DNA of 40,194 bases from a virus: UHGV virus genome UHGV-0127942; one strand, 5' to 3'. Shown one piece after another: positions 5,748 through 33,342 of this stretch. Each line of letters begins with the position of its first letter. The stretch's first letter is position 1. A program made the translations under genes and the position numbers. Below the pieces are notes generated by a model. That model was not told the origin of the DNA, ran no database searches, and worked only from the letters and a program-made list of their open reading frames with translations.

Positions 5748-5762
5748 TTACCGTTGAGGTAA
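5748..5762. promoter_or_regulatory. Operator-like palindrome TTACC-N5-GGTAA (leftward early promoter, downstream site)
   Basis: Perfect 5-bp inverted half-sites; lies between the -10 of the leftward promoter and the first ATG (5728), overlapping the RBS. Confidence 0.6.
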
Positions 5763-5789
5763 TAATTATGCGTATATGGTTTGATGTCA
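5761..5789 (-). promoter_or_regulatory. Leftward early promoter (pL-like), sigma70-type
   Basis: Minus-strand TTGACA (plus 5784-5789), 17-bp spacer, -10-like AATTAT (plus 5761-5766); flanked by two operator palindromes. Confidence 0.5.
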
Positions 5790-5808
5790 ATAGATATGAG
5801 TTAAAAAA

Positions 5809-5823
5809 ATTACCCGTTAGGTA
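5809..5823. promoter_or_regulatory. Operator-like palindrome TTACC-N5-GGTAA (leftward early promoter, upstream site)
   Basis: Perfect site about 20 bp upstream of the -35 of the leftward promoter. Confidence 0.6.
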
Positions 5824-5834
5824 ATCGAATAGGC

Positions 5835-5860
5835 AATAAAAAAGCCGCCATAAGGCGGCT
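5835..5860 (-). terminator. Intrinsic terminator after the repressor gene
   Basis: Hairpin AGCCGCC-ATAA-GGCGGCT preceded on the plus strand by an A-run (T-run on the minus strand). Confidence 0.6.
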
Positions 5861-5881
5861 TACTTACTGAAAAATATGGTT

Positions 5882-6466
5882 TTATTGTTTGTTTTTTTCG
5901 TTCTGGTTGATGACAAATTCAATGTAACTTTCGATCTTTGCTTTCTCGGTTTCGGGTAACAATGCGTAGCGCGAGCGATCATAGTTGATGGTCGCAGGGT
6001 CGTGCGGGTGAATCAGTAATTCATAGCCGTGACGCCCGAATGCGGATGCAACATTCTCCAGGGTGGAAATGGAAACGCTGACCTCATTGTTTAACAGGCG
6101 GCTGATTGTCACCTGGGCTACGCCGGATGCGCGGTGAAGTTTTCCCTGTGTTGAAAGGTCGCGGCTTTCGCTCATCCAGCGTTCCAGGTTGTGAGCCGCC
6201 AGCTGGCCAATGTCGCTTGGGCCGACAGGCTGAAAACCTTCCTGAGAAAGCGAGCGATCGATATCAAGCCAGTTACGGGGTTTATTGGCGGCAGCTTCAA
6301 TTTTTCGTGCAACCTGGTCGCCGATAACCTTCTTGCCAAGAGCCCAGCGGTTTACCAGATTTGCCTGAGTTCCAAGTTTTTCAGCCATCCGCGTCTGAAC
6401 ACCATTGAATTCACGGTCGATCAAGTCGTTGAGATTTTGCCTGCGGACGTCCTGGATACTTTTCAT
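5882..6466 (-). CDS. Phage repressor, CI-like with two tandem HTH domains and no LexA-type peptidase domain
   Basis: 194 aa; HTH-like segments near residues 20-45 and 105-140; no S24 peptidase motifs; divergent from a Cro-like gene across an operator-rich 154-bp spacer. Confidence 0.7.
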   Translation of the reverse strand: MKSIQDVRRQNLNDLIDREFNGVQTRMAEKLGTQANLVNRWALGKKVIGDQVARKIEAAANKPRNWLDIDRSLSQEGFQPVGPSDIGQLAAHNLERWMSESRDLSTQGKLHRASGVAQVTISRLLNNEVSVSISTLENVASAFGRHGYELLIHPHDPATINYDRSRYALLPETEKAKIESYIEFVINQNEKNKQ

Positions 6467-6521
6467 TTTCTGGAAAATCGCCTCATATATGAATCAGTAG
6501 ATGATTCAATTTAAAGCAATA

Positions 6522-6536
6522 TTACCCAACAGGTAA
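6522..6536. promoter_or_regulatory. Operator-like palindrome TTACC-N5-GGTAA in the repressor/cro intergenic region
   Basis: Perfect site; two imperfect copies follow at 6539-6553 and 6570-6584. Confidence 0.65.
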
Positions 6537-6569
6537 ATGCACCCCACAGGTAACTATCCTTGATTTTTG

Positions 6570-6584
6570 TTACCTTATGGGTGA
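6570..6584. promoter_or_regulatory. Imperfect operator copy (TTACC-N5-GGTGA) overlapping the putative cro promoter
   Basis: 9/10 half-site match; lies between TTGATT (6560-6565) and a -10-like element upstream of cro. Confidence 0.45.
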
Positions 6585-6620
6585 ATATTTATTATCTGAA
6601 ATAAATATCAGGCAATAGCT

Positions 6621-6851
6621 ATGAGCGATAACGGACATTTCGATTTCAAAAAGCACTGGCTTGCACTTACTCCGGATGAGCGTGAAGCCTTCGCACAGGA
6701 AGCCGGAACGACGAGTCACTATATCCAGACTCACTTAACAGGTAAGCGCAAAATGCCAGGTAAGGTATTGATGAATGGGCTTTTTAAAGCCTGTAAAACA
6801 AGACAATGGCTGCGCTCAAAAGCAGAATTGGCATACTTCTTCTACTCATGA
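6621..6851 (+). CDS. Cro-like small transcriptional regulator
   Basis: 76 aa with HTH-like segment EAFAQEAGTTSHYIQTHLTGKRKMP; divergent from repressor; followed by an intrinsic terminator. Confidence 0.6.
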   Translation: MSDNGHFDFKKHWLALTPDEREAFAQEAGTTSHYIQTHLTGKRKMPGKVLMNGLFKACKTRQWLRSKAELAYFFYS

Positions 6852-6873
6852 TATCCAGCCACAACCCTCTGTA

Positions 6874-6896
6874 GACCGCCATCCGGCGGTCTTTTC
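6874..6896 (+). terminator. Intrinsic terminator after cro-like gene
   Basis: Hairpin GACCGCC-ATCC-GGCGGTC followed by TTTTC. Confidence 0.6.
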
Positions 6897-7001
6897 ATAT
6901 CTATTCGTACCTCAAAGGTAATAAAAAACCAAATCTGGTTGATCTTTTTTTTGTGTCAGCACAAAATGACCGTAATCCCAATACTAATAACAGGGCTTGC
7001 C

Positions 7002-7202
7002 ATGGAAATCATTACACGTATTGATGCCGCAAAGCGCGGACTTAAACGCTACTACACCGGAAAAACATGTAAGCACGGACATGACAGTGAACGCTGGGTT
7101 TACAACGGACACTGTGTTGAGTGCACCATGGAATCAAACCGTCGTATCAGGGCAGAGATTAAGCAGATCATGATTAATTCCTCCCCACAACATTCAAGCT
7201 GA
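7002..7202 (+). CDS. Hypothetical small zinc-binding protein
   Basis: About 66 aa from the Met at 7002; C-x-H...C-x-x-C arrangement (CKHGHDSERWVYNGHCVEC); position equivalent to lambda cII but not similar to it. Confidence 0.35.
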   Translation: MEIITRIDAAKRGLKRYYTGKTCKHGHDSERWVYNGHCVECTMESNRRIRAEIKQIMINSSPQHSS

Positions 7203-7217
7203 TAGCGGAGATTAATC

Positions 7218-8033
7218 ATGAGCAGACATGCAACAGATTGGGCCTGGGAGACAGATCCAGGTAGCTCATCATTAAAGCTCATACTGCTCTCGATGGCTGA
7301 CAGAGCCGATGAATATAACCTCTGCTACCCCAGCATAGAACGCCTCGTTAAAGACACTTGCCTGAATAAAAAAACCGTGCAGGCCGGGCTTATATCGCTC
7401 ATGAAAATGGGGCTTATTTCAGATACCGGAGAGAGAAAGGGAGCGACAAAAAGAGTGCGGGTTTTCTCTCTTAATATAACCAAAAACGGGAACATTAAAG
7501 GCAACCGGGAGGGGGGCAATGAACCCGAAAACGGGAATATACCCGAAAACGGGAATATACCCAAAAACGGGATGTTGAATGATCCCAAAAACGGGATGTT
7601 GAATGATCCCAAAAACGGGATCCAGAACCAGTCATATAACCAGTCATTTAACCAAGAGAGGGAGAGCAGGACAAAAAGCGGGGATTCTGTGCCTCATGAC
7701 CCCGGAGCAAACAACGCCGTGATGAATAACTTTGTTCCTCCTGGTGGGCCAGGGCAATTAGGCAAATTTGTCATGCATGAACAATGGCAGCCATCAGATG
7801 ACTTTCTTCGGAAAAGCTCATTGCAGGGGATCTACCTGGACAGTCTGCCAACGGCACAGGAACTTGCAGAGTTCAGAATTTACTGGATGGCTGAGGGTAA
7901 GGCATACCATCAGGCACAGTGGGAGCAGAAGCTGGCAAGGCGGCTGCAGATTAGCAGACAGAAGCAATCAACATTACCTGATAACAACGTTCCGCACTGG
8001 AACAGCCCTGAAGCATGGGAGGATTTCTTGTGA
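7218..8033 (+). CDS. Replication initiator, lambda O-like, with internal iterons
   Basis: N-terminal HTH-like initiator domain (LKLILLSMADRADEY...IERLVKDTCLNKKTVQAGL); coding region contains tandem DNA repeats that translate to NGNIPENGNIP...KNGMLNDPKNGMLNDP. Confidence 0.75.
   Translation: MSRHATDWAWETDPGSSSLKLILLSMADRADEYNLCYPSIERLVKDTCLNKKTVQAGLISLMKMGLISDTGERKGATKRVRVFSLNITKNGNIKGNREGGNEPENGNIPENGNIPKNGMLNDPKNGMLNDPKNGIQNQSYNQSFNQERESRTKSGDSVPHDPGANNAVMNNFVPPGGPGQLGKFVMHEQWQPSDDFLRKSSLQGIYLDSLPTAQELAEFRIYWMAEGKAYHQAQWEQKLARRLQISRQKQSTLPDNNVPHWNSPEAWEDFL
7481..7622 (+). repeat. Iteron array (putative replication origin) inside the O-like gene
   Basis: Six direct copies of a core AAAACGGGA (starts near 7483, 7527, 7545, 7563, 7587, 7611), arranged as two 18-bp and two 24-bp tandem units plus flanking copies. 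Confidence 0.7.
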
Positions 8034-8815: not shown

Positions 8816-8852
8816 TACCAGCGCGATAGCGCATTTTTTTACGTCTCGACAA

Positions 8853-8867
8853 TTACCTGTCAGGTAA
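8853..8867. promoter_or_regulatory. Operator-like palindrome TTACC-N5-GGTAA upstream of the middle operon
   Basis: Perfect site, about 20 bp upstream of the -35 TTGATT at 8887-8892. Confidence 0.6.
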
Positions 8868-8886
8868 TAAAATATTCTAAAATCTA

Positions 8887-8915
8887 TTGATTTCGTGTCT
8901 TATGTGGTTTTTAAT
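8887..8915 (+). promoter_or_regulatory. Middle-operon promoter, sigma70-like
   Basis: TTGATT, 17-bp spacer containing TATGTGGTT, -10-like TTTAAT; bracketed by two operator palindromes. Confidence 0.45.
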
Positions 8916-8929
8916 TACCTCAGAGGTAA
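8915..8929. promoter_or_regulatory. Operator-like palindrome TTACC-N5-GGTAA overlapping the RBS of the gene at 8933
   Basis: Perfect site; its right half contains the GAGG Shine-Dalgarno 4 nt before the ATG. Confidence 0.6.
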
Positions 8930-8932
8930 ATC

Positions 8933-9277
8933 ATGAGAAAACAGATACAGGCTCTTGGTCGACTCAAAACAGGTCAGATGAACAAAACAGAATCTGCGTA
9001 TTGCCAGCACCTTGAGCTGCGTAAACGTGCAGGAGAAATCGTCTGGTATCGATTTGAGGGTATCAAGCTGCGGTTAGCTGACAACACGTTCTATACGCCA
9101 GATTTTGCTGTGATGCTCGCCACCGGCGAGATGGAACTGCACGAAGTGAAAGGTTTCTGGACCGACGACGCCAGGGTGAAAACCAAAGTCGCCGCAGATC
9201 AGTATCCGTTCCGAATCATCGGGGTAACGGTTAAACCAAAGAAAGCAGGTGGTGGCTGGATCATCGAAGAGTTCTGA
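8933..9277 (+). CDS. Hypothetical phage protein, possibly DUF1064-like
   Basis: 114 aa; first gene after the terminator that follows the P-like gene; family assignment is from memory only. Confidence 0.5.
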   Translation: MRKQIQALGRLKTGQMNKTESAYCQHLELRKRAGEIVWYRFEGIKLRLADNTFYTPDFAVMLATGEMELHEVKGFWTDDARVKTKVAADQYPFRIIGVTVKPKKAGGGWIIEEF

Positions 9278-9338
9278 ATCGACGATCTTTTTAGTTATCA
9301 ATGTTATCAATAAGTTATGTGGATAAGCGAGGGTAAAG

Positions 9339-9890: not shown

Positions 9891-10201
9891 CAATCACAAA
9901 ACAACGAGTAGAAAAAATCATATATCGCCATGAAATGGGACTGAGCAGCGATGTCACTGCCGAAGAGGTTTATGACCTGGCTGTACTGGCGCTGAATTTA
10001 TCAAATATCGCAAACCTGAAGCGATACGAGCTTGATATGGATGGTTGTGACTCGTGCGGTCAGGATTGTGGCGCTGACATGACTGAAGATTCTGATGGCG
10101 ATTATGTCCTGTTTGATGACGTGGTTAAGTTGCTTGAGTTTGATACAACCACTCAGAAGTTCGAAAGCCCAGCAAAGGAGGCAGCCAGTGAGCAAGATTG
10201 A
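9887..10201 (+). CDS. Hypothetical acidic protein
   Basis: 104 aa; ATGA overlap with the upstream gene. Confidence 0.5.
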   Translation: MTITKQRVEKIIYRHEMGLSSDVTAEEVYDLAVLALNLSNIANLKRYELDMDGCDSCGQDCGADMTEDSDGDYVLFDDVVKLLEFDTTTQKFESPAKEAASEQD

Positions 10202-11762: not shown

Positions 11763-11763
11763 T

Positions 11764-12687: not shown

Positions 12688-12809
12688 TGAACAAGTGCAA
12701 CGCTCTGCTTTATGCCATGGTGATTGGTTTCGGCCTAGCTGCTGGTATCCGGGTTTATATTACCTGGGAGTCATTAATCAATCTGGCGTGGAGTGCGGTT
12801 CGTGGCTAA
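12687..12809 (+). CDS. Possible small membrane protein (40 aa)
   Basis: ATG at 12687 overlapping the upstream stop; hydrophobic product; overlaps the start of the next ORF so only one may be real. Confidence 0.25.
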   Translation: MNKCNALLYAMVIGFGLAAGIRVYITWESLINLAWSAVRG

Positions 12810-13140
12810 ATCCCCCGCAGAACGCAAAGCCGCGCAGCGCGCTCGGCAGTCCGCCGCCGGTGAGCGCAAAATTGAATTGGTGCTGGATAAGCAGGAGCAG
12901 GAAATGCTGGCGCGGAACTGCGCCGCCCGGCGCCCTGGTCGCGATCCCTATGAAATGGCCGAGTACATCGCGTTACTGATCCGCCAGGATGATGCACGCG
13001 TGCGCGGGCGTATAAAATCGATTAGCAGAAAACGTTGCGGTAAGTGCGGCGAGAAAGTTCCCGTTAATTCATGCCCGTGTAATGGTGACTCGCAATGCTG
13101 GGTGACTAAAGGCTGGCATGAAACGAAATTAATAGTGTGA
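12793..13140 (+). CDS. Hypothetical zinc-ribbon protein, candidate late regulator
   Basis: 115 aa from a GTG start; KRCGKCGEKVPVNSCPCNGDSQCW Cys cluster; sits immediately upstream of a palindrome and terminator that precede the terminase genes. Confidence 0.4.
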   Translation: MRFVAKSPAERKAAQRARQSAAGERKIELVLDKQEQEMLARNCAARRPGRDPYEMAEYIALLIRQDDARVRGRIKSISRKRCGKCGEKVPVNSCPCNGDSQCWVTKGWHETKLIV

Positions 13141-13148
13141 CATGTCAC
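13137..13148. promoter_or_regulatory. 12-bp perfect palindrome GTGACATGTCAC (copy 1)
   Basis: Overlaps the stop codon of the Zn-ribbon gene; 41 bp upstream of the terminator hairpin that precedes the terminase genes. Confidence 0.5.
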
Positions 13149-13189
13149 GAGTAGATTATGCATGATGAATTTGATGGGTTTTGAATACT

Positions 13190-13215
13190 GCCGCCAACTA
13201 TGGCGGCTTTATTTT
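13190..13215 (+). terminator. Intrinsic terminator upstream of the terminase genes
   Basis: Hairpin GCCGCC-AACTAT-GGCGGC followed by TTTATTTT. Confidence 0.6.
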
Positions 13216-13226
13216 GCATGGTACTA

Positions 13227-13241
13227 TTACCACAACGGTAA
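13227..13241. promoter_or_regulatory. Operator-like palindrome TTACC-N5-GGTAA upstream of terminase small subunit
   Basis: Perfect site between the terminator at 13190-13215 and the terS start; an imperfect copy TTACC-N5-GGTTA follows at 13245-13259. Confidence 0.55.
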
Positions 13242-13258
13242 CTATTACCACGGTGGTT

Positions 13259-13855
13259 ATGATGCCTGCTGAACCTAAAACCTATAAACGCAAATCAACG
13301 CAATTTAAGCCACTAACAGCAATGCAGGAGGCTTATTGCCAGTCATACATCAAAACGCCTGAAAACCAGACTCAGGCAGCGATTAACGCAGGATTCTCCC
13401 CAAATACAGCGGCAGTTAAAGCCAGTGTCATGATGCGCGATGAACGCATTCAAAAACGGATTGCCGAGTTGATGGAGGAGCGCAACAAACGAATGCGCGT
13501 CAGTGCCGATTACGTTCTCATGCGCCTGGTGGAGATCGACCAGATGGACGTGATTGATATCCTCAACGACGATGGGAGCCTTAAGCCAATCCGCGAGTGG
13601 CCGAAAATCTGGCGCACTACGCTTAGTGGCTTTGATCTGTCATCGACCATCATGAACATGAACGAGGATTCGATAGAGACAATCCTCAAAAAAATTAAAT
13701 GGCCTGACAAGGTGAAGAACCTCGAACTGATTGGTAAGCACGTCGACGTCAACGCATTCAAAGAACGCCTGGATGTTAATGTGAATGTGACAATTGCTGA
13801 TCGCATAGCGGCAGCCAGGAAGCGACTCAAAGAACGTCAGGATGGTAATCAGTGA
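13259..13855 (+). CDS. Terminase small subunit
   Basis: Directly upstream of and overlapping the large terminase gene; start moved to 13259 because an intrinsic terminator hairpin (13190-13215) lies inside the longer ORF-track version. Confidence 0.6.
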   Translation: MMPAEPKTYKRKSTQFKPLTAMQEAYCQSYIKTPENQTQAAINAGFSPNTAAVKASVMMRDERIQKRIAELMEERNKRMRVSADYVLMRLVEIDQMDVIDILNDDGSLKPIREWPKIWRTTLSGFDLSSTIMNMNEDSIETILKKIKWPDKVKNLELIGKHVDVNAFKERLDVNVNVTIADRIAAARKRLKERQDGNQ

Positions 13856-15370: not shown

Positions 15371-15397
15371 AAAACAAAGCCAGCTCATCGGCTGGCT
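15371..15397 (-). terminator. Bidirectional intrinsic terminator between terminase large subunit and the reverse moron gene
   Basis: Hairpin AGCCAGC-TCATCG-GCTGGCT with an A-run on one side and a T-rich stretch on the other. Confidence 0.55.
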
Positions 15398-15401: not shown

Positions 15402-15413
15402 GTGACATGTCAC
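15402..15413. promoter_or_regulatory. 12-bp perfect palindrome GTGACATGTCAC (copy 2)
   Basis: Immediately after the bidirectional terminator hairpin at 15371-15397; 5 nt from the stop of the minus-strand gene 15418-15789. Confidence 0.5.
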
Positions 15414-15987: not shown

Positions 15988-16064
15988 TGGCGTGGTATGC
16001 AGGATTCGAACCTGCGACCAACCGCTTAGAAGGCGGTTGGTCTGTCCAACTGAGCTAATACCAC
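15988..16064 (-). tRNA. tRNA-Arg (anticodon UCU)
   Basis: Reverse complement reads GTGGTAT...anticodon stem-loop ACCGC-CTTCTAA-GCGGT...T-arm GCAGGTTCGAATCCTGC...ACCACG-CCA; architecture close to E. coli argU; D-arm pairing looks imperfect. Confidence 0.75.
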
Positions 16065-16386: not shown

Positions 16387-16401
16387 TTACCTGAAAGGTA
16401 A
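16387..16401. promoter_or_regulatory. Operator-like palindrome TTACC-N5-GGTAA upstream of the head-gene operon
   Basis: Perfect site 44 bp upstream of a TATGTGGTT element and about 90 bp upstream of the gp6.7-like gene. Confidence 0.55.
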
Positions 16402-16444
16402 TAATTCGTGCGTTAAATGTCAACCATCTACGATAAATAAATCA

Positions 16445-16466
16445 TATGTGGTTAAATTGGTAATAA
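16445..16466 (+). promoter_or_regulatory. Candidate late promoter: TATGTGGTT-N6-TAATAA
   Basis: Conserved element 6 bp upstream of a -10-like hexamer; no good -35; upstream of the gp6.7-like and portal genes. Confidence 0.4.
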
Positions 16467-16491
16467 TTTAATTGCGTACGGAGTCATTGAT

Positions 16492-19391: not shown

Positions 19392-20384
19392 ATGACAATG
19401 GCTGTTAAAGGCTTAACTGCGCTAACGCTGGCTGACTGGGGTAAGCGCGTCGATCCAAACGGGAAAGTCGATAAGATTATCGAGCTTCTCGGTCAAACTA
19501 ACCCGATCCTTCAGGATATGCCTTTTGTCGAAGGGAACCTTCCTACCGGACACCGAACCACCATTCGTTCTGGTTTACCTTCAGCTACCTGGCGTTTGCT
19601 GAACTATGGCGTACAGCCAAGCAAATCAACAACGGTGCAGGTCACTGATTCCATTGGCATGCTGGAAACCTATGCTGAAGTCGATAAGTCACTGGCTGAT
19701 CTGAACGGCAATACCGCCGAATTCCGCCTGTCTGAAGACCGCGCATTTATTGAAGCGATGAATCAGCAGATGGCGCAGACGCTGTTTTATGGTGATTCCA
19801 GCGTTAACCCTCAGCAGTTTATGGGACTGTCCTCCCGCTATTCCAGCCTGTCTGCGGGTAATGCTCAGAACATCATTGATGCTGGTGGCACGGGTACAGA
19901 TAACACCTCAATCTGGTTAGTGGTGTGGGGCGAAAACACCGTGCATGGCATCTTCCCGAAAGGGCAGAAGGCTGGCATCCAGATGGAAGATAAAGGCCAG
20001 GTGACACTGGAAGATGCTGATGGCGGCAAGTACGAAGGCTATCGCACCCATTATAAATGGGATAACGGACTTGCTCTGCGTGACTGGCGTTATGTTGTTC
20101 GCATTGCAAACATCGATGTCAGCAATCTTTCAGAACCTTCCTCTGCCGCAAATATTGCGAAGTTGATGGTTAAAGCACTGCATCGCATTCCAAACCGTGG
20201 CATGGGCCGCCCGGTGTTCTACATGAACCGCACTGTAGGCCAGGCTCTTGATCTGCAATCTCTGGAGAAAACATCTCTGGCGATCAGCGTAAAAGAGACA
20301 GAAGGCGAGTGGTGGACTTCATTCCGTGGTGTACCAATCCGTGAAACTGATGCGCTTCTGGAAACAGAAGCCCGCGTGGTGTAA
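19392..20384 (+). CDS. Major capsid protein
   Basis: 330 aa immediately after the scaffold gene, strong RBS, followed by a stem-loop; position and size typical of a major capsid protein. Confidence 0.7.
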   Translation: MTMAVKGLTALTLADWGKRVDPNGKVDKIIELLGQTNPILQDMPFVEGNLPTGHRTTIRSGLPSATWRLLNYGVQPSKSTTVQVTDSIGMLETYAEVDKSLADLNGNTAEFRLSEDRAFIEAMNQQMAQTLFYGDSSVNPQQFMGLSSRYSSLSAGNAQNIIDAGGTGTDNTSIWLVVWGENTVHGIFPKGQKAGIQMEDKGQVTLEDADGGKYEGYRTHYKWDNGLALRDWRYVVRIANIDVSNLSEPSSAANIAKLMVKALHRIPNRGMGRPVFYMNRTVGQALDLQSLEKTSLAISVKETEGEWWTSFRGVPIRETDALLETEARVV

Positions 20385-25678: not shown

Positions 25679-28191
25679 TGCCAGTCGTACCAACAGTATC
25701 CGGACGTCAGGTTGAGAGCCGTGGAGTTCAGTCAGCAGGCTTGCAGACGTTTTCTCAGCCAGGTATTGGTGATGCTTTTGTTCTGGCAGGGGCAGAGACT
25801 ATTGATGTTTTTGGTCAGGCAAAACAGCGTGCCAATATCGCTCTGGCTCAGGAGGCATCTCTTAACCTCAGTCAGATAAGCAGCGATCTGCTGAATAACC
25901 CTGAAACAGGGTTGCTTAACCTGAAAGGGAAAAATGCTATTGGAAAAGGCCATGAGTATACGCAGCAGTTTGATGCTCAGGTCGAACAACTGGCTATGTC
26001 GCTGCCGGATGAACAGGCTCGTAATACTTTCATGCAGCAGGCGCAGCAGCAGCGCATTCAGTTCACTACGCAGGCCGGGCGGCACGAGATAGGGCAAATA
26101 AACGCCTACGAAGAAGGCCAGTTTCAGTCTACGCTGCTGAACAATGGTAAAAATGCCGCAGCATTGTATGGCGACAACGCCGCATACGTATTGGCTAATA
26201 AGCAAACTTTCCAGCAAATTGAGGATTACGGCATTGCGCATGGCTGGAGCGACGAGCAAATCCAGGCCAAGAAAGTCGAGTTTAAAGAGAAGGTTGCTGA
26301 TGCCGCATTGTCCCAGTGGTCGGCAAACAATGCGACCGCATTCATCCAAAGTAATGGCGAGTTAAGTGATACTGCTGCTGGAGCTCGCCGTGCTGTAGCA
26401 GATAGTGACTCTTCCGAGCGTGCCCGTGGCATACGCAACAATAACCCAGGAAATCTCGAATACAGCAAAACTAATCCGTGGGTAGGCCAGACCGGTGATG
26501 ATGGTCGATTTGCTAAATTCGAAACACCTGAACACGGGATTCGTGCATTAGGGCGAAACCTGATGTCGTATCAGAGGCAGGGTATTGATACCGTCAGCGA
26601 GATAATTAATCGCTGGGCACCGCCTACTGATAAAAATGACACTATGTCGTATATCAAAGCAGTGTGCGAACAACTTGGCGTTTCTGCTGATGAGCCTCTC
26701 GATGCATCTAATCCTGATACCCTGAAGGCGCTTTGTGCAGCCATTATCCATCATGAGAACGGTAGCCAGCCATACAGTGATCAGCAGTTAACTGCTGGTG
26801 TCAGTGCAGCACTTGGTTTATCAACAATTCCAACCAACACCAAACGCTATACCGGTAATGCAGCATTCGATGCGGCATCTCCTGAGGCGCAGGCAAGTTT
26901 TATGCGACAGGCGGATCAACTGCGTCGGCAGCAGCAGGCTGAATATAAAACGATGATTGACAGCCAGGTTCGCGATGCGACAGCTGCGTATATGCGTGGC
27001 GTTGAATTTCCTAACCCACCTGGTGAGGCTGATTTTATTGCAGCTTATGGAGTCAGAGAAGGAAACCTGCGATATACCGAGTTCAGAAATACGCAAATCG
27101 CCGGACAGTATATAGGCTCTTTCCGCAACATGCCGACAAGCAGCATTACAGCATATGTTGAGCAATTACGCCCGGATACTGGTGAGACAGGGGAGGGTTA
27201 TGCGGCACGAGCCGCTCTTTATGACAACGTTGTGTCGGCTGCAAGTCAGGTGATAAAGCAGCGACAGGCTGATCCTGTACAGTTCTCTCTTGCCGCCGGA
27301 CAGGCAAAGCCTATCGACATGAGCAATAAGGATAACTTTGGACAGAGCGTTGCCTTGCGTGCTGCTCAGGTCAGTGACCTTGCTAAGTCATATGGCACTC
27401 CACTGACGTTCTTTTCCAAAGACGAGGCCAATCAGATCGGTGTTTTCTTTCGTGATGCGCCCGTTTCCCAACAGGCAGCATATCTCGATACCATCAGGCA
27501 GAGCACTGGTGGTGGGCAGGTGTATATGTCAGCACTACAGCAGATCAGTGCCAACGCTCCATCTGCTGCCGTTGCCGGGATACTGATGGATAAGCCAGGT
27601 GGTATTTTGGCAGAAAAAAACTGGTTTAATCCGGATGTTTCCGTGTCTCCTGAAACCGCTGCGCAGACAATTCTTGCTGGCGCGGCGGCTCGTAAAGGTA
27701 CTGATGACGCGAAAGGTATTCCGATGCCTAAAGATGCTGATCTCCGCCTTGAGTTTTCTGACATGGTGAAGGATGCATTTGCTGGTGATGCTCAGGGGGC
27801 ATCAATGGCATACGAGATCGCAAAGGACTATTACGCAGGTGTGATGGCGAAAAAAGGCGTGGTATCAGGCGAAATTGACAATGATATCTGGAAACAGGCT
27901 GTTAACGTAGCTACAGGTGGCGTGCATGACTATAACGGAATGGGGAATGTTCTTTTGCCGTGGGGAATGTCTGCAGAGCAATTCGATAAGCAGGTTAATC
28001 AGGCTTGGAATGAACAAGTTGTTGGCACAGGGATAAAAACACCGCCTGGTCAGTATGGTTTGCAAAGTTACGGCGATAGTCAGTACCTGGTGAAACTTGG
28101 TACTGGTTATCTGCTAAAAGATGATGGTTCTCCCGTTGTTCTTGATCTGACACAGAAGCGTCAGAGATTCTCCGGAGATATTCCGCAATGA
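25678..28191 (+). CDS. Internal virion / ejection protein (gp15-position)
   Basis: 837 aa from the ATG at 25678; contains a conserved-looking stretch IRNNNPGNLEY...WAPP of unknown function. Confidence 0.55.
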   Translation: MPVVPTVSGRQVESRGVQSAGLQTFSQPGIGDAFVLAGAETIDVFGQAKQRANIALAQEASLNLSQISSDLLNNPETGLLNLKGKNAIGKGHEYTQQFDAQVEQLAMSLPDEQARNTFMQQAQQQRIQFTTQAGRHEIGQINAYEEGQFQSTLLNNGKNAAALYGDNAAYVLANKQTFQQIEDYGIAHGWSDEQIQAKKVEFKEKVADAALSQWSANNATAFIQSNGELSDTAAGARRAVADSDSSERARGIRNNNPGNLEYSKTNPWVGQTGDDGRFAKFETPEHGIRALGRNLMSYQRQGIDTVSEIINRWAPPTDKNDTMSYIKAVCEQLGVSADEPLDASNPDTLKALCAAIIHHENGSQPYSDQQLTAGVSAALGLSTIPTNTKRYTGNAAFDAASPEAQASFMRQADQLRRQQQAEYKTMIDSQVRDATAAYMRGVEFPNPPGEADFIAAYGVREGNLRYTEFRNTQIAGQYIGSFRNMPTSSITAYVEQLRPDTGETGEGYAARAALYDNVVSAASQVIKQRQADPVQFSLAAGQAKPIDMSNKDNFGQSVALRAAQVSDLAKSYGTPLTFFSKDEANQIGVFFRDAPVSQQAAYLDTIRQSTGGGQVYMSALQQISANAPSAAVAGILMDKPGGILAEKNWFNPDVSVSPETAAQTILAGAAARKGTDDAKGIPMPKDADLRLEFSDMVKDAFAGDAQGASMAYEIAKDYYAGVMAKKGVVSGEIDNDIWKQAVNVATGGVHDYNGMGNVLLPWGMSAEQFDKQVNQAWNEQVVGTGIKTPPGQYGLQSYGDSQYLVKLGTGYLLKDDGSPVVLDLTQKRQRFSGDIPQ

Positions 28192-29990
28192 GTTACTTTG
28201 GCCTTAATCCAGTAAACCAGAATCAGCAGCTTGACGAAGCAGCATCAAATCCAGCGGGCTTTAACAGCGATGTTGGTTTTTTCGACAATGCTGTAGGAGC
28301 GGCATTGTCTGGTTTGTACTCCGGGCTGGTGGCAAAGCCAGACCAGTTGCTATGGGCAGGAATGGATAAAATCGTATCCCCGATTGCTCAGTTTGTTAAC
28401 GAAAACACCTCGTTCAATGATACTTCAGTTTCATACATTGCCGAGCAGAGAAAACTAGCAGAGCAGCAGGTTAAGCGGCTGACGCCTGATGCGGCGACAA
28501 CCGGAACCGCCGGGCAGGTCCTTTATGGGTTGTTCGATATGGGCGGGCAGGCTGTTGTCGGTACAACGCTCGGTGGTCCGGTCGGAGGTGCTGCGGCGGT
28601 AACTTCGCTACAGGGTTTTTCTGAGTTTGAACGGCTGACAGCACAGGGTGTTGATTTCAGGACGGCGCAGGAAGCGGGATTAGTGCAGGGTATTACTGCT
28701 GGTGCCGGAACACTGATCCCTATGAGCCTCGGGTTACGTGCTGGTGGTGCGCTGGCGGAAGGTGTGGCGGCTCAGCTTGCGCGGACGGGTGAAAGTTCAG
28801 TGCGACGCGCCGCAGCAACAGCAGTACGTGCAACGCCAGATATTGCCTATGCCGCAGGTACAAATATTGCGTTCGGTATGGCACAGCGTGGGCTTACTGC
28901 AAAAACGCTTCGTGATGGTGGCTATAGCGAAATGGCTAACCAGTATGATGTGTTGGATCGACAGGCAATTGCTATTGATGCTGTTCTTGGGGTGGCGTTT
29001 GGTGGTGTCGGCAGATTTATTAACTCTCGCGGCGAGTCTACAAACGCACCAAATTTTTCACCAGTTGATGTCGATGCTGCACTGGCGGCGAATGCCGCTC
29101 ATCATGCTGAAATTGATATTGCTCCCGGCGTCCCGATCAACGTGCTTTCGCGCAATTCTCACATTCAGGCTCTGCGAAAAGCCATGTCTGATGTTAGCCA
29201 GGGGAGGCCTGTAGACGTTGCCAGCATTGTTGAGTCTGCATCTTTCAGTGAAATTCCTGGGCGCAAGAGTCTGCTGTCTCAGGCAGTTAATGAGGCTCTG
29301 TCATCTGTAGATGATGGAGTAACGGCGCGCGCTATAGAAAATCGGTTGCTTGAAGAACAGGCTGCGCAGCTTTTGCCGCGTGGCGATAGACAGGTTTACC
29401 AGTCTGAAATCGCTAATAGCCAACGAATTATTGAAAATCTCACTGAACAGCGCGCACAAATTCTTGCAGAAGAGCCAACCGGTAGCGGTAAGGCTTTATC
29501 TCGTGCTCGATCAGATAAACAGGCCAGACTTCGCGATATTGACCAACGAATCCGGCAGGCACAAGAACGCCTGGAATTTTCCCGTAACGCGTTGGCACCG
29601 CATGAGCCTGGCGGTCAGTTTTTTGAAGCTCGAGCAGAACTGGCACGGCGACAACAGGCAGAAAGTGAACTTAATGCTCAGGCTGTTTCATTCTATAAAA
29701 CAGCAGAGGTCAGGACGCCAGACGAAGTAGCTCCTTTTGAGCCCGGTAAGATATTGCAACAGGCAGAACAAAAGATGATGGCAGATCCGGCAGGAGATAT
29801 TGATCTGCGCATAGCTGAAGACTCGCTGCTTGAATCACCTGACATGATAATCACCGTGCTGGATGATGATGGTAATCCACAATCGCGCAGTGCGCGTGAA
29901 GTACTGGATGAAGCGAACATGGAAAGTGAGCAGGCAATACAGGATTCCAGCCTGTTTGATGTCGCTGTGGCGTGTTTCTTGAGAGGTTAA
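28188..29990 (+). CDS. Internal virion / ejection protein
   Basis: 600 aa, Gly/Ala-rich N-terminal region; ATGA overlap with upstream gene. Confidence 0.5.
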   Translation: MSYFGLNPVNQNQQLDEAASNPAGFNSDVGFFDNAVGAALSGLYSGLVAKPDQLLWAGMDKIVSPIAQFVNENTSFNDTSVSYIAEQRKLAEQQVKRLTPDAATTGTAGQVLYGLFDMGGQAVVGTTLGGPVGGAAAVTSLQGFSEFERLTAQGVDFRTAQEAGLVQGITAGAGTLIPMSLGLRAGGALAEGVAAQLARTGESSVRRAAATAVRATPDIAYAAGTNIAFGMAQRGLTAKTLRDGGYSEMANQYDVLDRQAIAIDAVLGVAFGGVGRFINSRGESTNAPNFSPVDVDAALAANAAHHAEIDIAPGVPINVLSRNSHIQALRKAMSDVSQGRPVDVASIVESASFSEIPGRKSLLSQAVNEALSSVDDGVTARAIENRLLEEQAAQLLPRGDRQVYQSEIANSQRIIENLTEQRAQILAEEPTGSGKALSRARSDKQARLRDIDQRIRQAQERLEFSRNALAPHEPGGQFFEARAELARRQQAESELNAQAVSFYKTAEVRTPDEVAPFEPGKILQQAEQKMMADPAGDIDLRIAEDSLLESPDMIITVLDDDGNPQSRSAREVLDEANMESEQAIQDSSLFDVAVACFLRG

Positions 29991-29995
29991 ATTAA

Positions 29996-32470
29996 ATGAG
30001 ACAGGAATGTATACAAGCGGTTCAGCAGGCGGCGCAGCGCACGTTAACGGCGCGAGAAATACAGAACATTGAAGACCGCATTTATCGAAATATGCGCTCC
30101 ATTGCTCGTGATGACCCGATGTCGTGGAGACAACTTTCCGAATCAGAGCGGCTATATCGAGCAGCACAATTGGCATCTGAAGAATTACAGCGAGAAGCGG
30201 CATTAAAGAAACGTCGTGTGGCCCTCACTATAGCCGCACGTCAGAGATTGGATAAATTTATCAATAGCTATCAAGGGGCTGATGGGAAACTTGGCGCTCT
30301 TAACCGTACTATTGCTTTTAATGCAGACGGTAAATCGAATTTCCTCTCTGTTGAGTCCAGAACAAAAGCCACTCGTGATTATGCATTGAGTCAATTGCAG
30401 GAGGCATTTGAAGCAGTTGATCCTCGCTTTTTTGGCCTGTTTGAAGATGAAGCTGGCGTGCGTGATCTGGTATATGAAATGCGAGGGCAAAATACTGGCA
30501 ATGCTAAAGCAAGAAAAGGTGCTAAGGCGTGGAGAGAAGTTACAGAGCTGCTGCGCCGCCGGTTTAATGATGCTGGTGGGGACATTGGCTATCTCGAAAA
30601 CTGGGGGATCCCTCAACATCATTCTATGGAAAAGGTTGGGGCGGTATCAAAAGATAAATGGGTTAGCGATGTTATAGGTAAGCTGGATCGCAAATATTAT
30701 ACCCGAGCCGATGGACAACTGATGAACGATGCCGAGTTGTCTGCATTTCTTGGAGAGGCTTATAACACGATCGCTACTGGTGGGCTGAATAAGCTTACTG
30801 ATACCGGAATGCGAATTTCCGGCGCACGTGCTAACCGTGGTAATGCATCACGACAGATACATTTCAAAGATGCAGATTCCTATCTGCAATATCAGCAACT
30901 TTATGGCGATCGCTCTCTATGGGAAATCATGGTCGGTCACCTTGAAGGTATCAGTAAAGATATTGCACTGGTGGAAACATATGGCCCAAACCCCGATCAT
31001 GTTTTCCGCTCTCTTCTTGATCAGGTGAAGGCAGAAACGGCAACAGCTAACCCGAGTAAAACCGGTAAAGTCGAGCGGCTGGCGAACAACACAGAGAATC
31101 TGTACAACTTTATTTCCGGAAAGACACAGCCTGTAGCGAATCCGCACATCGCGCGATGGTCTGACAATATCCGCAACTGGCTGGTTGCCAGCAGACTCGG
31201 ATCCGCGTTGCTGTCATCGTTCTCTGATCTTGGAACCATGTATCTGTCTGCGAAGGTTACCAACCTTCCAATGAACCAGTTATTCCGCAACCAGCTTGAA
31301 GCTATGGACCCAACGAACCGTACAGAACTTGCGCGGGCGCGCCGCGCTGGTCTGGCGATGGAATCTCTACTTGGCAGCGTTAACCGCTGGGCGATGGATA
31401 ATATGGGGCCGTCTGTGTCTCGTTGGGCGGCAACGGCGGTAATGCGTGCCAGTGGGCTTACAGCATGGTCAGATGCGCACAAGCGCGCCTATGGCGTAAC
31501 CATGATTGGAAGCCTGGGAGAAGTAGTGTCACGGACACCAGACCTTCGTAGCCTCGATAATTCTGATTTTCGTATCCTGAAAAGCAAAGGGATTACTGAC
31601 ACAGACTGGAGCGTATGGAAGCTGGCGCAACAGGAGGACTGGGGGAACGGCAATAATACGATGCTGACACCGGAAAGCATTATGCGTATCCCTGATTCAG
31701 CAGTTAAACATCTTGGTGAGCCTGAACGCGTGAAATTTGAGGCAATGCGTAAACTGCTCGGTGCCGTAACTGAAGAAGTTGATATGGCTGTTATTACACC
31801 GGGAGCACGTGAGCAACTGATAACCGGTTCTGGTATTCAGCGTGGAACATGGAAAGGTGAATTAACGAGAAGTGTTTTCCTGTTTAAATCGTTCCCTATC
31901 TCGGTGGTTATGCGTCACTGGTCACGCGCTATGGGTATGCCGTCTGCTGGTGGGCGTGCGGCATATATTGCGACGTTTATTGCCAGTACGACCATTCTTG
32001 GCGCTTTGTCGCAGCAACTTAACGACCTTGCGTCTGGTCGTAATCCTCGCGAGATGACAGGAGAAGATGCTGCTAAATTTTGGCTTGGTGCTCTACTGAA
32101 AGGTGGTGGTCTTGGCCTTTACGGTGACTTTTTATTGTCAGATCACACTAGGTACGGAAGCGGCGCGCTGGCGTCGATGCTTGGCCCGGTAGCTGGTCTG
32201 GTTGATGACGTAGTGAAGATTGCTCAGGGCATACCGTTAAATGCTGTGGAAGGGAAGAGTGAGCAGACTGGTGGTGATCTGGTGAAGCTGGGGAAAGGTT
32301 TGATGCCAGGTGCGAATCTCTGGTACTTAAAGGCGGCTCTCGATCATATGATCTTTAACCAGATGCAGGAGTATTTTTCACCAGGCTATTTGCGTAAAAT
32401 GGAGCAACGTTCGAAGAAAGAGTTTAATCAGACATACTGGTGGCGACCTCAGGATGTCACTCCGCAATAA
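29996..32470 (+). CDS. Internal virion / ejection protein (gp16-position)
   Basis: 824 aa; together with the preceding gene occupies the position of T7 gp16. Confidence 0.5.
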   Translation: MRQECIQAVQQAAQRTLTAREIQNIEDRIYRNMRSIARDDPMSWRQLSESERLYRAAQLASEELQREAALKKRRVALTIAARQRLDKFINSYQGADGKLGALNRTIAFNADGKSNFLSVESRTKATRDYALSQLQEAFEAVDPRFFGLFEDEAGVRDLVYEMRGQNTGNAKARKGAKAWREVTELLRRRFNDAGGDIGYLENWGIPQHHSMEKVGAVSKDKWVSDVIGKLDRKYYTRADGQLMNDAELSAFLGEAYNTIATGGLNKLTDTGMRISGARANRGNASRQIHFKDADSYLQYQQLYGDRSLWEIMVGHLEGISKDIALVETYGPNPDHVFRSLLDQVKAETATANPSKTGKVERLANNTENLYNFISGKTQPVANPHIARWSDNIRNWLVASRLGSALLSSFSDLGTMYLSAKVTNLPMNQLFRNQLEAMDPTNRTELARARRAGLAMESLLGSVNRWAMDNMGPSVSRWAATAVMRASGLTAWSDAHKRAYGVTMIGSLGEVVSRTPDLRSLDNSDFRILKSKGITDTDWSVWKLAQQEDWGNGNNTMLTPESIMRIPDSAVKHLGEPERVKFEAMRKLLGAVTEEVDMAVITPGAREQLITGSGIQRGTWKGELTRSVFLFKSFPISVVMRHWSRAMGMPSAGGRAAYIATFIASTTILGALSQQLNDLASGRNPREMTGEDAAKFWLGALLKGGGLGLYGDFLLSDHTRYGSGALASMLGPVAGLVDDVVKIAQGIPLNAVEGKSEQTGGDLVKLGKGLMPGANLWYLKAALDHMIFNQMQEYFSPGYLRKMEQRSKKEFNQTYWWRPQDVTPQ

Positions 32471-32479
32471 GGAAGTGTT

Positions 32480-32649
32480 GTGTTTTTAATTATTTTGAGT
32501 GTGATAATTTCTGGTGGGTTGTTATTTATTGACCGCTACAAATATTTTCTTAACCCTCAGACTCAAGCTATTTGCTGGTTCATCTTTGTTGTGCAGGGAA
32601 TAGTTCTTGTTGCAAGCCTTATTGAGGGGAGGCCTCTGATTTTTACTGG
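32480..32649 (+). CDS. Possible small hydrophobic protein (about 57 aa)
   Basis: Not in the ORF track; GTG at 32480 five nt after AAGGAAG; product VFLIILSVIISGGLLFIDRY... is strongly hydrophobic. Confidence 0.25.
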
Positions 32650-32665
32650 GTAAATAGGTGACTAC

Positions 32666-32956
32666 ATGCAAGCTATAGGATTCATTGTTTATATCGTCGT
32701 TGGTCTTTTTCAGTTGGCAGCAATTATGGCTGGGCTTGAATCATGGTGGGGATTGCACTGGATAATTGCAGCCCCCATTGCTTTCATCGTGAGCTATATT
32801 CCATTTGTTGGAGCGATTGTTGGTATGGTTGGTGCTGTGGATGTATGGCGGTGGGAGTGGTGGCAGGCTGGCCTTCTCTTCTTTGGTGGGATCATCTTTG
32901 CTATTGTCTGCGGTGGAATGTCATCATTTTTCGAACGGCTATCATTCAGAAAATGA
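32666..32956 (+). CDS. Small integral membrane protein
   Basis: 96 aa with several predicted transmembrane stretches (IVYIVVGLFQLAAIMAGL..., IAAPIAFIVSYIPFVGAIVGMVGAV...); followed by a palindrome and a terminator. Confidence 0.5.
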   Translation: MQAIGFIVYIVVGLFQLAAIMAGLESWWGLHWIIAAPIAFIVSYIPFVGAIVGMVGAVDVWRWEWWQAGLLFFGGIIFAIVCGGMSSFFERLSFRK

Positions 32957-32958
32957 AC

Positions 32959-32970
32959 GTGACATGTCAC
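32959..32970. promoter_or_regulatory. 12-bp perfect palindrome GTGACATGTCAC (copy 3)
   Basis: 3 nt after the stop of the membrane-protein gene and directly abutting the terminator hairpin at 32971-32995. Confidence 0.5.
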
Positions 32971-32995
32971 AGGCCGCTTTCGCGGCCTTTTCTTT
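32971..32995 (+). terminator. Intrinsic terminator after the internal-virion/membrane-protein block
   Basis: Hairpin AGGCCGC-TTTC-GCGGCCT followed by TTTTCTTT. Confidence 0.6.
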
Positions 32996-33251
32996 ATGTG
33001 GTTTGTTTTCGTAATTGTTCGGCACAATAGTCGAGATGTGTTTGCAGATCCCGCATAGACATCTGTGAGCTGGTGACGTAGTTAATCAGTGCAGTCAGTT
33101 CGGCAAGTGGGCCATCGACATTAAATCCATCCTTATCGAGATCCCGGAGTAATTTCATCAAGTGCGATCCCTCCACCAGTGACCTGACGCCTCCCGGCGT
33201 GTGGATCCTTTCGGTAAATCCGTCTTCCAGTGGATAGTGATACTGCTGCAT
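32994..33251 (-). CDS. LexA-controlled small protein, candidate antirepressor
   Basis: 85-aa minus-strand ORF with RBS GGAGAAG; promoter immediately upstream contains a near-consensus LexA box; no protein family I can name. Confidence 0.6.
   Translation of the reverse strand: MQQYHYPLEDGFTERIHTPGGVRSLVEGSHLMKLLRDLDKDGFNVDGPLAELTALINYVTSSQMSMRDLQTHLDYCAEQLRKQTT
32995..33016 (+). promoter_or_regulatory. Candidate promoter: TATGTGGTTT-N6-GTAATT
   Basis: Perfect 10-mer immediately after the terminator at 32971-32995; would transcribe antisense across the LexA-controlled gene. Confidence 0.35.
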
Positions 33252-33270
33252 CTTATCTTCTCCATGTAAT

Positions 33271-33290
33271 AACTGTATATTTATACAGTA
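33271..33290 (-). promoter_or_regulatory. LexA (SOS) box within the promoter of the minus-strand gene 32994-33251
   Basis: CTGT-ATATTTAT-ACAG (core 33273-33288); minus-strand 20-mer TACTGTATAAATATACAGTT matches the remembered LexA consensus TACTGTATATATATACAGTA at 18/20; sits in the spacer between TTGATA and a -10-like hexamer. Confidence 0.75.
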
Positions 33291-33327
33291 TCAAATAATT
33301 TGTTTGCTATCCAGCACGTTTTGCAAA

Positions 33328-33342
33328 TTACCCGAAAGGTAA
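33328..33342. promoter_or_regulatory. Operator-like palindrome TTACC-N5-GGTAA between the LexA-controlled gene and the tail-fibre gene
   Basis: Perfect site 32 bp upstream of TATGTGGTTT (33374-33383) and about 40 bp from the LexA box. Confidence 0.55.

Follow-up and report, generated by a model that had tools for sequence, protein, structure and literature searches.

The window, the whole 40,194-nucleotide stretch of viral DNA analysed here, is a phiV10/epsilon15-like (Uetakevirus) prophage inserted beside yfgI/yfgH/yfgG. It encodes a repressor, Rep, divergent from a small Cro-like protein, and elsewhere an antirepressor homolog, Ant, with a LexA box in its promoter region (Table 1). Rep is 100% identical to phiV10 gp40 and matches the SPC32H repressor over its full length (PDB 5D50_A, E=4e-42), its C-terminal half corresponding to the tetramerisation/Ant-binding domain of PDB 5D4Z. 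The overall identity to the epsilon15 repressor is about 42%, with an identical recognition helix. A Pfam search of Rep returned HTH_3 and YdaS-like HTH domains and no S24 peptidase domain, and the same kind of search gave no match for the Cro-like protein. The ZX5 repressor, which is identical to Rep, has been the subject of over-expression work in which the operators were not mapped (PMC9782041). The phage also encodes a phrog_536 'transcriptional regulator' (12793-13140), a PerC-like activator (2608-2907) and DNA methyltransferases.

Table 1. Regulatory genes and predicted control sites, numbered along the window.
Feature	Position	Strand	Remark
Truncated right end (AAGGTAT) of conserved imperfect site TTACCTTAAAGGTAT	1-7		relatives carry the site about 57 bp ahead of int
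Promoter-proximal operator, leftward early promoter	5748-5762		conserved in six genomes
Upstream operator, leftward early promoter	5810-5824		19 nt short of the -35; 62 bp from 5748
Rep repressor gene (194 aa)	5882-6466	-	N-terminal HTH and second HTH_3 region
rep/cro cluster operator 1, rep-proximal	6522-6536		half-sites invariant in six genomes
rep/cro cluster operator 2, degenerate GCACC-N5-GGTAA	6539-6553		17 bp from operator 1
rep/cro cluster operator 3, TTACC-N5-GGTGA	6570-6584		occupies the rightward promoter spacer
Cro-like small regulator (76 aa)	6621-6851	+	phrog_35 'transcriptional repressor', E=5.6e-13
Imperfect site GTACC-N5-GGTAA	6907-6921		downstream of cro terminator (6873-6892)
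Upstream operator, middle promoter	8853-8867		19 nt short of the -35 TTGATT (8887-8892)
Promoter-proximal operator, middle promoter	8915-8929		62 bp from 8853
Terminase promoter-operator unit	13219-13259	+	TG.TACTAT and both sites conserved in five genomes
Head/portal operon operator	16387-16401		upstream of the operon
Block CTACG.TAAATAA..ATATGTGGTTAAATTGGTAATAATTTAATTGCGTACGGAG	16425-16483	+	nearly invariant in six genomes; downstream of the 16387 operator
Ant homolog, antirepressor (85 aa)	32994-33251	-	PDB 5D50_E 'Anti-repressor protein', E=4.6e-47
LexA box CTGTATATTTATACAG	33273-33288		ant promoter region; largely conserved across six genomes
Operator in divergent ant/tail-fibre control region	33328-33342		perfect site
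CATATGTGGTT-N5-GGTAATAGAAT element	33372-33398	+	conserved

Scanning the window for the palindrome TTACCNNNNNGGTAA gave eight perfect sites (5748, 5810, 6522, 8853, 8915, 13227, 16387 and 33328), where 0.03 are expected and none of 100 dinucleotide-preserving shuffles reached eight. An earlier note, made by reading the sequence, had reported eight such palindromes, and the scan with its shuffled controls bears this out; seven of the perfect positions it listed and its imperfect copies at 6570 and 13245 are correct, while 5809 should be 5810 and 6908 should be 6907. Its further imperfect copy at 6539 carries two mismatches (GCACC..GGTAA), yet is a real degenerate site, because it aligns with perfect TTACC sites of epsilon15, SPC32H and BUCT711. 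With up to one mismatch allowed, 13 sites are found against 0.65 expected, the additional ones lying at 6570, 6907, 13245, 33560 and 36678; the last two, both inside coding sequence, are probably chance matches. Equal frequency in host DNA, which the note had named as grounds for abandoning the motif, was not seen: 150 kb of the E. coli C chromosome contain no perfect site, and one-mismatch sites occur there at about 1.3 per 40 kb. In a survey of every 5-mer palindromic dyad with gaps of 0-14, with expectations taken from half-site counts, TTACC with a gap of 5 was the top outlier of the window (8 observed, 0.11 expected; across 20 shuffles no dyad exceeded 3), and it is the sole enriched palindromic dyad there. 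When 61 sites were pooled, the half-site positions were 90-100% conserved and each spacer position at most 62%, in agreement with the claimed pattern of invariant half-sites around a variable spacer. The half-sites do not differ between early and late sites, and no subclass hints at two specificities.

Under the gene model common to epsilon15, SPC32H and Tyrion, in which terS starts at ATG 13262, downstream of 13227/13245, all eight perfect sites are noncoding, as had been claimed. In the phiV10 record and with a crude ORF caller, by which about 9% of the window is noncoding, an upstream TTG or alternative start lets the frame run over 13227/13245. The crude ORF map, which called 5748 as well as 13227/13245 coding, was dropped in favour of homology-based gene starts.

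The sites hold two stereotyped positions with respect to promoters, either touching the -10 or standing 17-19 bp upstream of the -35, and at the early-left, middle and terminase promoters an operator starts on the last -10 base. At the leftward early promoter (-35 TTGACA, 5790-5785; -10 AATTAT, 5767-5762) site 5748, read on the minus strand, begins on the final base of the -10, just as the first T of site 8915 closes the middle-promoter -10 TTTAAT (8910-8915). Site 8915 also holds the ribosome-binding GAGG of the DUF1064 gene, 6 nt ahead of its ATG at 8933, a detail that the earlier reading had picked out correctly. The rightward promoter can be read as TTGATT (6560-6565)-17-GAATAT or else as TTGTTA-17-TATTAT. 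The imperfect site at 6907, matched in phiV10 at 33112 and in Tyrion at 35365, lies 17 nt upstream of a -35 TTGATC (6939) that is followed by the -10 CAAAAT (6962). At the int side, the flank actctcataccg after the imperfect site recurs in phiV10 at 26870 and in near-identical form (actcttcatacc) in SPC32H at 26960, and the site itself is also found in epsilon15 at 26882 and in Tyrion at 28568.

A sigma-70 scan identified clear promoters at the early and middle sites only. Relaxed scoring gave 10-12 for the early promoters as against at most 7 at the terS, head and tail-fibre sites, with weak candidates returned at the latter two. A terminator lies upstream of every late site. At the terminase unit the terminator (13190-13207) precedes both sites, the extended -10 TGGTACTAT (13219-13227) runs directly into the operator at 13227-13241, and the imperfect operator at 13245-13259, 18 bp from 13227, carries the terS ribosome-binding site GGTGG (ATG 13262). 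The likely start sites of the head and tail-fibre units lie some 70-80 bp downstream of their operators. Downstream of the head operator, the block at 16425-16483 is probably a weak activator-dependent late promoter. Within it a half-site, GGTAA (16459-16463), stands exactly 62 bp past the GGTAA of the operator and is followed by TAATTT; no Rfam family was found at this block, and its fold as a structured RNA was not significant (z = -1.5). The element at 33372-33398, with a GGTAA half-site (33388-33392) and a -10-like TAGAAT (33393-33398), is probably the tail-fibre promoter. Here the distance from operator to half-site is 50 bp, which is not an integral number of helical turns.

Eleven other genomes, from 7-8 host genera (hosts: Escherichia, Salmonella, Enterobacter, Klebsiella, Citrobacter, Superficieibacter, Erwinia and Scandinavium), carry the motif at positions that are homologous and can be aligned, so that the conservation in related prophages which the earlier note proposed to look for is present. 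Each of these genomes has 5-11 perfect sites and encodes a full-length Rep with the recognition helix (N/T)LVNRW, which is nearly invariant among the relatives; in SPC32H the same motif stands at the same ten or more positions. The layout that had been described, with bracketing sites at the early-left and middle promoters, three sites between rep and cro, and sites ahead of terS, the head operon and the tail-fibre gene, is correct and genus-wide. Bracketing pairs are 61-63 bp apart, mostly 62 bp, in all genomes examined that have both sites; for the middle promoter the distance is 62 bp in six Uetakevirus genomes and 61-62 bp at other prophage loci. Site positions and the 62 bp spacing are kept where the flanks have diverged. 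The site ahead of the lysis cassette in epsilon15, phiV10, SPC32H and Tyrion is absent from the window, which has a different module in that region (36297-36520). In four distant homologs, related through the N-terminal domain alone, the helix is QTQVSRLI or PSIVNQHI and the motif is lacking at the gene, and covariation of helix and motif is seen in a weak version that rests on these homologs. A Rep of altered specificity paired with an altered palindrome was not found, the full-length homologs found sharing both helix and motif.

The epsilon15 genome, reportedly described by Kropinski and colleagues in Virology in 2007, has the identical motif at homologous places by terS, the head operon, the tail fibre gene and the early-left and middle promoters. 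In its record (NC_004775.2 / AY150271.2) seven sites are labelled "protein_bind: repressor, lysogeny", all of them TTACC-N5-GGTAA. Those at 12-27, 2931-2947 and 19895-19911, which precede terS (small terminase), the head operon and the tail fibre gene respectively, are homologous to 13227, 16387 and 33328 of the window; three more align with 5748, 5810 and 8853, and the seventh is an extra PL site (32479) without a counterpart in the window. The rep/cro cluster, the lysis-cassette site and the second site of the middle promoter are missing from the record, and epsilon15 differs from the window in possessing a third site on the early-left side and one at the lysis operon. This annotation may itself be a prediction. 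The claim that late operators had not been described for this phage type is wrong, because the epsilon15 record already labels the homologous sites, late ones included, and the palindrome network is a correct observation of already known biology. Full-text literature searches returned no match to the motif in several spellings or to GTGACATGTCAC, and in the literature searched no experimental test of the function of the late-region sites was found. The phiV10 record is without operator features, which phiV10-type records could take from epsilon15, and the complete operator network proved recoverable by tool-free reading.

Taken on the sequence, the TTACC-N5-GGTAA palindromes are likely operators of the prophage's own Rep, a reading to which we assign a probability of about 0.8. 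The window shares with the Uetakevirus set a Rep of the 5D50 family encoded next to the operator cluster, the identical motif, the homologous site positions and a small Ant with a LexA box. The closest parallel is SPC32H (PDB 5D50, 5D4Z), which has homologous Rep and Ant, a LexA box beside ant and the same motif, and whose Rep/Ant/LexA lysis-lysogeny switch is said to have been described by Kim and Ryu in J Virol in 2013 and by Kim and colleagues in PNAS in 2016; unlike SPC32H, the window is an E. coli phiV10-type phage, and the C-terminal half of its Rep has diverged. By homology, N-terminal HTH pairs with the helix (N/T)LVNRW would each read one palindrome. SPC32H Rep is described as a tetramer that binds palindromic DNA and is broken by Ant, its DNA-binding pairs being drawn from different dimers (NAR 2022, PMC9638917), and a second paper likens its tetramerisation domain to those of DNA-looping regulators (PMC9986798). 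The palindrome had been called the signature of a dimeric HTH protein; a repressor operator is very probable, while the homologous SPC32H Rep is described in PMC9638917 as a tetramer.

Since an SPC32H-type tetramer would have two HTH pairs, one tetramer could occupy two operators simultaneously. These might be neighbours with a 17-18 bp spacing, as in the rep/cro cluster and at terS, or the promoter-bracketing pair, spaced 62 bp, of the early-left and of the middle promoter. In the lysogen, Rep would directly silence every lytic unit, namely early-left, early-right, middle, terminase, head and tail fibre, each of which would have its own promoter after a terminator. On SOS induction LexA would leave the box at 33273-33288, Ant would be made and would pull the Rep tetramer apart, and all lytic units would be freed together. 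At the head and tail-fibre promoters the operators are too far upstream for simple occlusion, and repression would require a loop to the half-site downstream or another mechanism. The two-position architecture might reflect very small repression loops, in which one tetramer encloses each promoter within about six helical turns, a full operator is paired with a lone GGTAA beside the -10 at the head and tail-fibre promoters, and all lytic units, the late ones too, are held by direct repressor contact without a cascade. We regard this extension as rather doubtful; if true, it would make for a compact, one-repressor switch of the whole genome.

The arrangement resembles lambda OR/OL in having three operators (6522, 6539, 6570) between divergent repressor and cro-like genes, one of them over the rightward promoter, together with early-left operators. 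Unlike lambda CI, Rep lacks the RecA-cleavable S24 autocleavage domain, and induction would proceed through an antirepressor. The operators here reach middle and late promoters, whereas the late genes of lambda are controlled indirectly through Q. P1 C1 and the CB repressors of N15 and PY54 are likewise single immunity repressors acting on many dispersed units, with antirepressors in P1, but the repressor proteins are unrelated to Rep. The P1 operators are asymmetric 17-mers, and in N15 the sites occur at immunity and replication loci only, not at structural operons. The role of the late operators, for which direct promoter repression, half-site loops and roadblocks are the options, is a modest, specialist question that bears on how an antirepressor-controlled podovirus silences its structural genes without a lambda-style cascade.

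The roadblock option would equate the late-region sites with the stoperators of mycobacteriophage L5, at which bound repressor stops read-through RNA polymerase while initiation is not repressed. L5 likewise has one repressor with sites genome-wide, late regions included. Each late site in the window comes after a terminator, 13227/13245 lie between the terminator and the terS start codon, and the terS, head and tail-fibre sites have no good -35, all of which fits such a role. The L5 gp71 stoperators, however, are about 30 asymmetric 13-bp sites, all oriented alike within operons, at which a bound monomer halts elongation. The sites here are palindromic and so cannot be orientation-specific, number only about 12, lie at fixed promoter positions with none inside an operon, and go with a two-HTH, predicted tetrameric repressor unrelated to gp71; no asymmetric oriented site, within-operon location or gp71 homolog was found. 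In addition, the last base of the conserved extended -10 (TG.TACTAT) coincides with the first base of 13227, an arrangement also seen at the early-left and middle promoters, which points to control of initiation, and at the head operon and tail-fibre gene the conserved promoter-like block follows the site instead of preceding it. The likeness to L5 suggested in the earlier note therefore fails, and roadblocking at the late sites is improbable.

Direct control by Rep could also be confined to the immunity-region sites, with another phage protein as the main ligand of some or all of the sites and the upstream copies serving as activator sites. The candidates are the Cro-like protein, the phrog_536 regulator and the PerC-like activator. 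The upstream sites are centred at about -62 (early-left and middle), -60 (6907), -70 (tail fibre) and -82 (head) from the likely starts, a range that we take to be typical of upstream activators, and the late promoters look activator-dependent; the Cro-like protein, for its part, scores in a transcriptional repressor family. Against a different ligand, the early and late half-sites are identical without a two-specificity subclass, the epsilon15 record assigns all annotated sites to the repressor, and the motif tracks the Rep helix across 7-8 host genera, which makes this reading very improbable. In lambda-type switches Cro shares the operators of the repressor, and the Cro-like protein is a possible second ligand here; such shared use would supplement the Rep model and leave it standing. 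A last reading takes the motif for a by-product of composition or chance, or for a restriction/modification, packaging or replication signal without regulatory function; in its favour one might cite the phage methyltransferases and the bipartite recognition sequences typical of some modification systems. The tests of shuffles, host background and conservation all but rule it out: no shuffle reached eight sites, the perfect sites are all noncoding and adjoin promoters, their positions and spacing persist despite diverged flanks, and the replication iterons are a different repeat, located within the replication gene.

A scan of the window located eight perfect TTACCNNNNNGGTAA sites, at 5748, 5810, 6522, 8853, 8915, 13227, 16387 and 33328, against an expectation of 0.03 from 100 dinucleotide-preserving shuffles. 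This bears out the count of eight palindromes in the earlier note, as well as seven of its start positions; the remaining one, placed at 5809, was one base off. Allowing one mismatch gives 13 sites versus 0.65 expected and adds 6570, 6907, 13245, 33560 and 36678, the last two of which lie within coding sequence and are probably due to chance. In an unbiased count of every 5-mer palindromic dyad with gaps of 0-14, carried out on the window and the shuffles, TTACC with a gap of 5 stood far in front, with 8 occurrences observed versus 0.11 expected from half-site frequencies, while the maximum for any dyad in the shuffles was 3. In 150 kb of the E. coli C chromosome, sampled as three 50-kb pieces, there are five one-mismatch sites and no perfect one. 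Had the motif been just as common in host DNA, the reading in the earlier note would have been refuted, but this sample shows that it is not.

At the level of public annotation, these sites are already known. In its RefSeq record, epsilon15 has seven features annotated as 'protein_bind: repressor, lysogeny', all seven of which are TTACC-N5-GGTAA, and in alignments the window sites 13227, 16387, 33328, 5748/5810 and 8853 are positional homologs of six of them, with no window counterpart for the feature at 32479. As the annotated features include late-region ones, the dispersal of the sites had already been recognised, and the suggestion that it was undescribed for this phage type fails.

Promoters associated with operators in the window (all coordinates checked), and annotated repressor features in epsilon15
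Feature	Genome	Coordinates	Elements	Relation to operators or genes
Leftward early (early-left) promoter (-)	window	-35 5790-5785; -10 5767-5762	TTGACA, 17 nt, AATTAT	operator 5748-5762 starts at final base of -10; operator 5810-5824 ends 19 nt before -35
Rightward promoter	window		TTGATT-17-GAATAT	operator 6570 in spacer
-35 hexamer	window		TTGATC	site 6907 ends 17 nt before it
Middle promoter	window	-35 8887; -10 8910-8915	TTGATT, 17 nt, TTTAAT	operator 8915 starts at final base of -10; operator 8853 ends 19 nt before -35
Terminase extended -10	window	13219-13227	TGGTACTAT	final base is first base of operator 13227
Repressor feature	epsilon15	12-27		just before small terminase gene
Repressor feature	epsilon15	2931-2947		before head operon
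Repressor feature	epsilon15	19895-19911		before tail fibre gene
Repressor features	epsilon15	32479, 32554, 32616		early-left side
Repressor feature	epsilon15	35906		middle promoter

Perfect sites number 8 in phiV10, 11 in epsilon15, 10 in SPC32H and 9 each in Tyrion (Enterobacter) and BUCT711 (Klebsiella), and six more prophages with a full-length phage repressor, Rep (hosts Superficieibacter, Erwinia, Klebsiella, Citrobacter (two) and Scandinavium), carry 5-9 each within 10 kb of rep. In an alignment of 61 sites, conservation is 90-100% at the ten fixed positions and at most 62% at every spacer position; an A tends to precede the site and a T to follow it. The spacing of neighbouring sites is likewise regular: the two middle-promoter sites are spaced by 62 bp in the window and these five phages and by 61-62 bp at the remaining prophage loci, those of the early-left promoter by 61-63 bp, the rep/cro cluster steps by 17 bp and then 30-31 bp, and the pair at the small terminase gene terS by 18 bp. 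Ahead of the lysis cassette, the control region of the window (36297-36520) has no Rep site but a consensus TATAAT instead (36500-36505); the site there is perfect in epsilon15 and has one mismatch in phiV10, SPC32H and Tyrion. The tail-fibre/serotype-conversion module of the window is unlike that of phiV10.

Minus-strand positions 5882-6466 encode a 194-aa protein that shares 100% identity with both phiV10 gp40 and the 'repressor' of ZX5. Its full length matches the crystallised SPC32H Rep (PDB 5D50_A; E=4e-42), and a domain search found HTH domains but no S24 peptidase domain. The antirepressor Ant of SPC32H (5D50_E) has an 85-aa homolog in the window (32994-33251, -; E=4.6e-47), and the promoter region of this homolog's gene contains a near-consensus LexA box, CTGTATATTTATACAG (33273-33288), largely conserved across the six genomes. 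Together, the Rep and Ant homologs and the LexA box identify, by homology, the complete SPC32H-type Rep/Ant/LexA switch in the window. A weaker CTGT-N8-ACAG (33346-33361), directly after operator 33328, is not conserved in relatives. Rep proteins diverge down to 41-45% identity overall, yet they hardly vary in the helix (N/T)LVNRW, where the single change is N-to-T in the Scandinavium Rep. Four distant homologs that match Rep in its N-terminal domain only (Paraburkholderia, Hydrogenovibrio, Thiomicrospira) have other helix sequences, and the TTACC motif is absent at all four genes, a weak hint that helix and motif may covary. These proteins share with Rep only the MKSI..D.RR N-terminal HTH domain; their C-terminal domains are unlike Rep's, that of the Paraburkholderia protein appearing LexA/S24-like by eye, and the Hydrogenovibrio and Thiomicrospira genes have a conserved TTGTAGCAAA.TGGGTATAT in front in place of the TTACC motif.

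The GAGG ribosome-binding site noted within operator 8915 was confirmed on checking its coordinates, and terS (ATG 13262) has its ribosome-binding site, GGTGG, in the imperfect operator 13245. The TG.TACTAT of the terminase promoter is kept in five genomes of the alignment, and the terminase operators are ordinary promoter-proximal ones rather than sites within a transcript. The head and tail-fibre operators lie upstream of blocks highly conserved in the six genomes. Common to 16425-16483 and 33372-33398 is a late-promoter-like element, nearly invariant in these genomes, in which CATATGTGGTT-N5-GGTAAT precedes a -10-like hexamer (TAATTT or TAGAAT), and an element of this type was also noted at 8899-8915. 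Because the -35 regions of the head and tail-fibre promoter-like blocks are poor, the CATATGTGGTT element likely depends on an activator, for which the phrog_536 regulator (12793-13140) and the PerC-like activator (2608-2907) are candidates. A lone GGTAA half-site follows exactly 62 bp after the GGTAA of the head operator; at the tail fibre the operator-to-half-site distance is 50 bp.

By every feature that sequence can test, the window sites belong to the epsilon15/SPC32H operator set, and the operator reading in the earlier note is essentially right. Its likening of the late-region sites to L5 stoperators, the repressor sites of a mycobacteriophage, is rejected, as the sites are palindromic, few and located at promoters, and their repressor has no relation to that of L5. 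The three-operator rep/cro cluster resembles that of lambda, but the window phage is without a cleavable repressor and places operators at middle and late promoters. The immunity repressor C1 of phage P1 has operators at many unlinked loci, and it is to such phages that the window is closest in spirit. SPC32H Rep is described as a tetramer on palindromic DNA, with DNA-binding pairs drawn from different dimers, that is broken by Ant (PMC9638917), and its tetramerisation domain as akin to those of DNA-looping regulators (PMC9986798). Sequence and homology establish which family the repressor belongs to, that Ant and the LexA box are present, and where the sites lie and how well they are conserved. 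We infer that a single Rep tetramer would grip two operators, adjacent or 62 bp apart, and that this hold would directly silence every lytic transcription unit, until SOS-induced Ant would free them all simultaneously; the mode of repression we infer for the head and tail-fibre operators likewise.

Three copies of another perfect palindrome, the 12-bp GTGACATGTCAC, are present in the window (13137-13148, 15402-15413 and 32959-32970), each copy 0-42 bp from an operon-end rho-independent terminator (13190-13207, 15378-15397 and 32971-32988, respectively). It is found at homologous places in phiV10, epsilon15, SPC32H, Tyrion and BUCT711, with 2-3 copies each and at least 9 of 13 copies homologous, and is absent from the 150-kb E. 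coli sample. The epsilon15 record holds no annotation for it, and no shared sequence was found among the copies outside the palindrome. This palindrome may serve as a site for a further regulator or act in termination or antitermination, and it looks like a more novel element of the window than the TTACC motif.

The window is a podovirus prophage of the phiV10/epsilon15 type, genus Uetakevirus. As the window's right end (38540-40194) is core E. coli chromosome, a yfgI/yfgH/yfgG segment that all 5426 complete genomes have, the prophage stops near 38530, past a terminator at 38501-38528; this flank is consistent with the guaA-proximal attachment site of the close relative ZX5 (PMC9782041). Bases 1-7 (AAGGTAT) are all that remains of a conserved imperfect site, TTACCTTAAAGGTAT, which phiV10, SPC32H, epsilon15 and Tyrion carry ~57 bp upstream of int. 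Between the terminase and head operons there is a tRNA gene (15991-16064, -; Rfam RF00005, 62 bits); in SPC32H a tRNA-Arg occupies the equivalent position. Within the gene of a DnaT-like replication initiator (7218-8033), six direct repeats of ~18-24 bp with the core CCCAAAAACGGGA (7472-7624) are probably origin iterons, by analogy with the lambda O gene.
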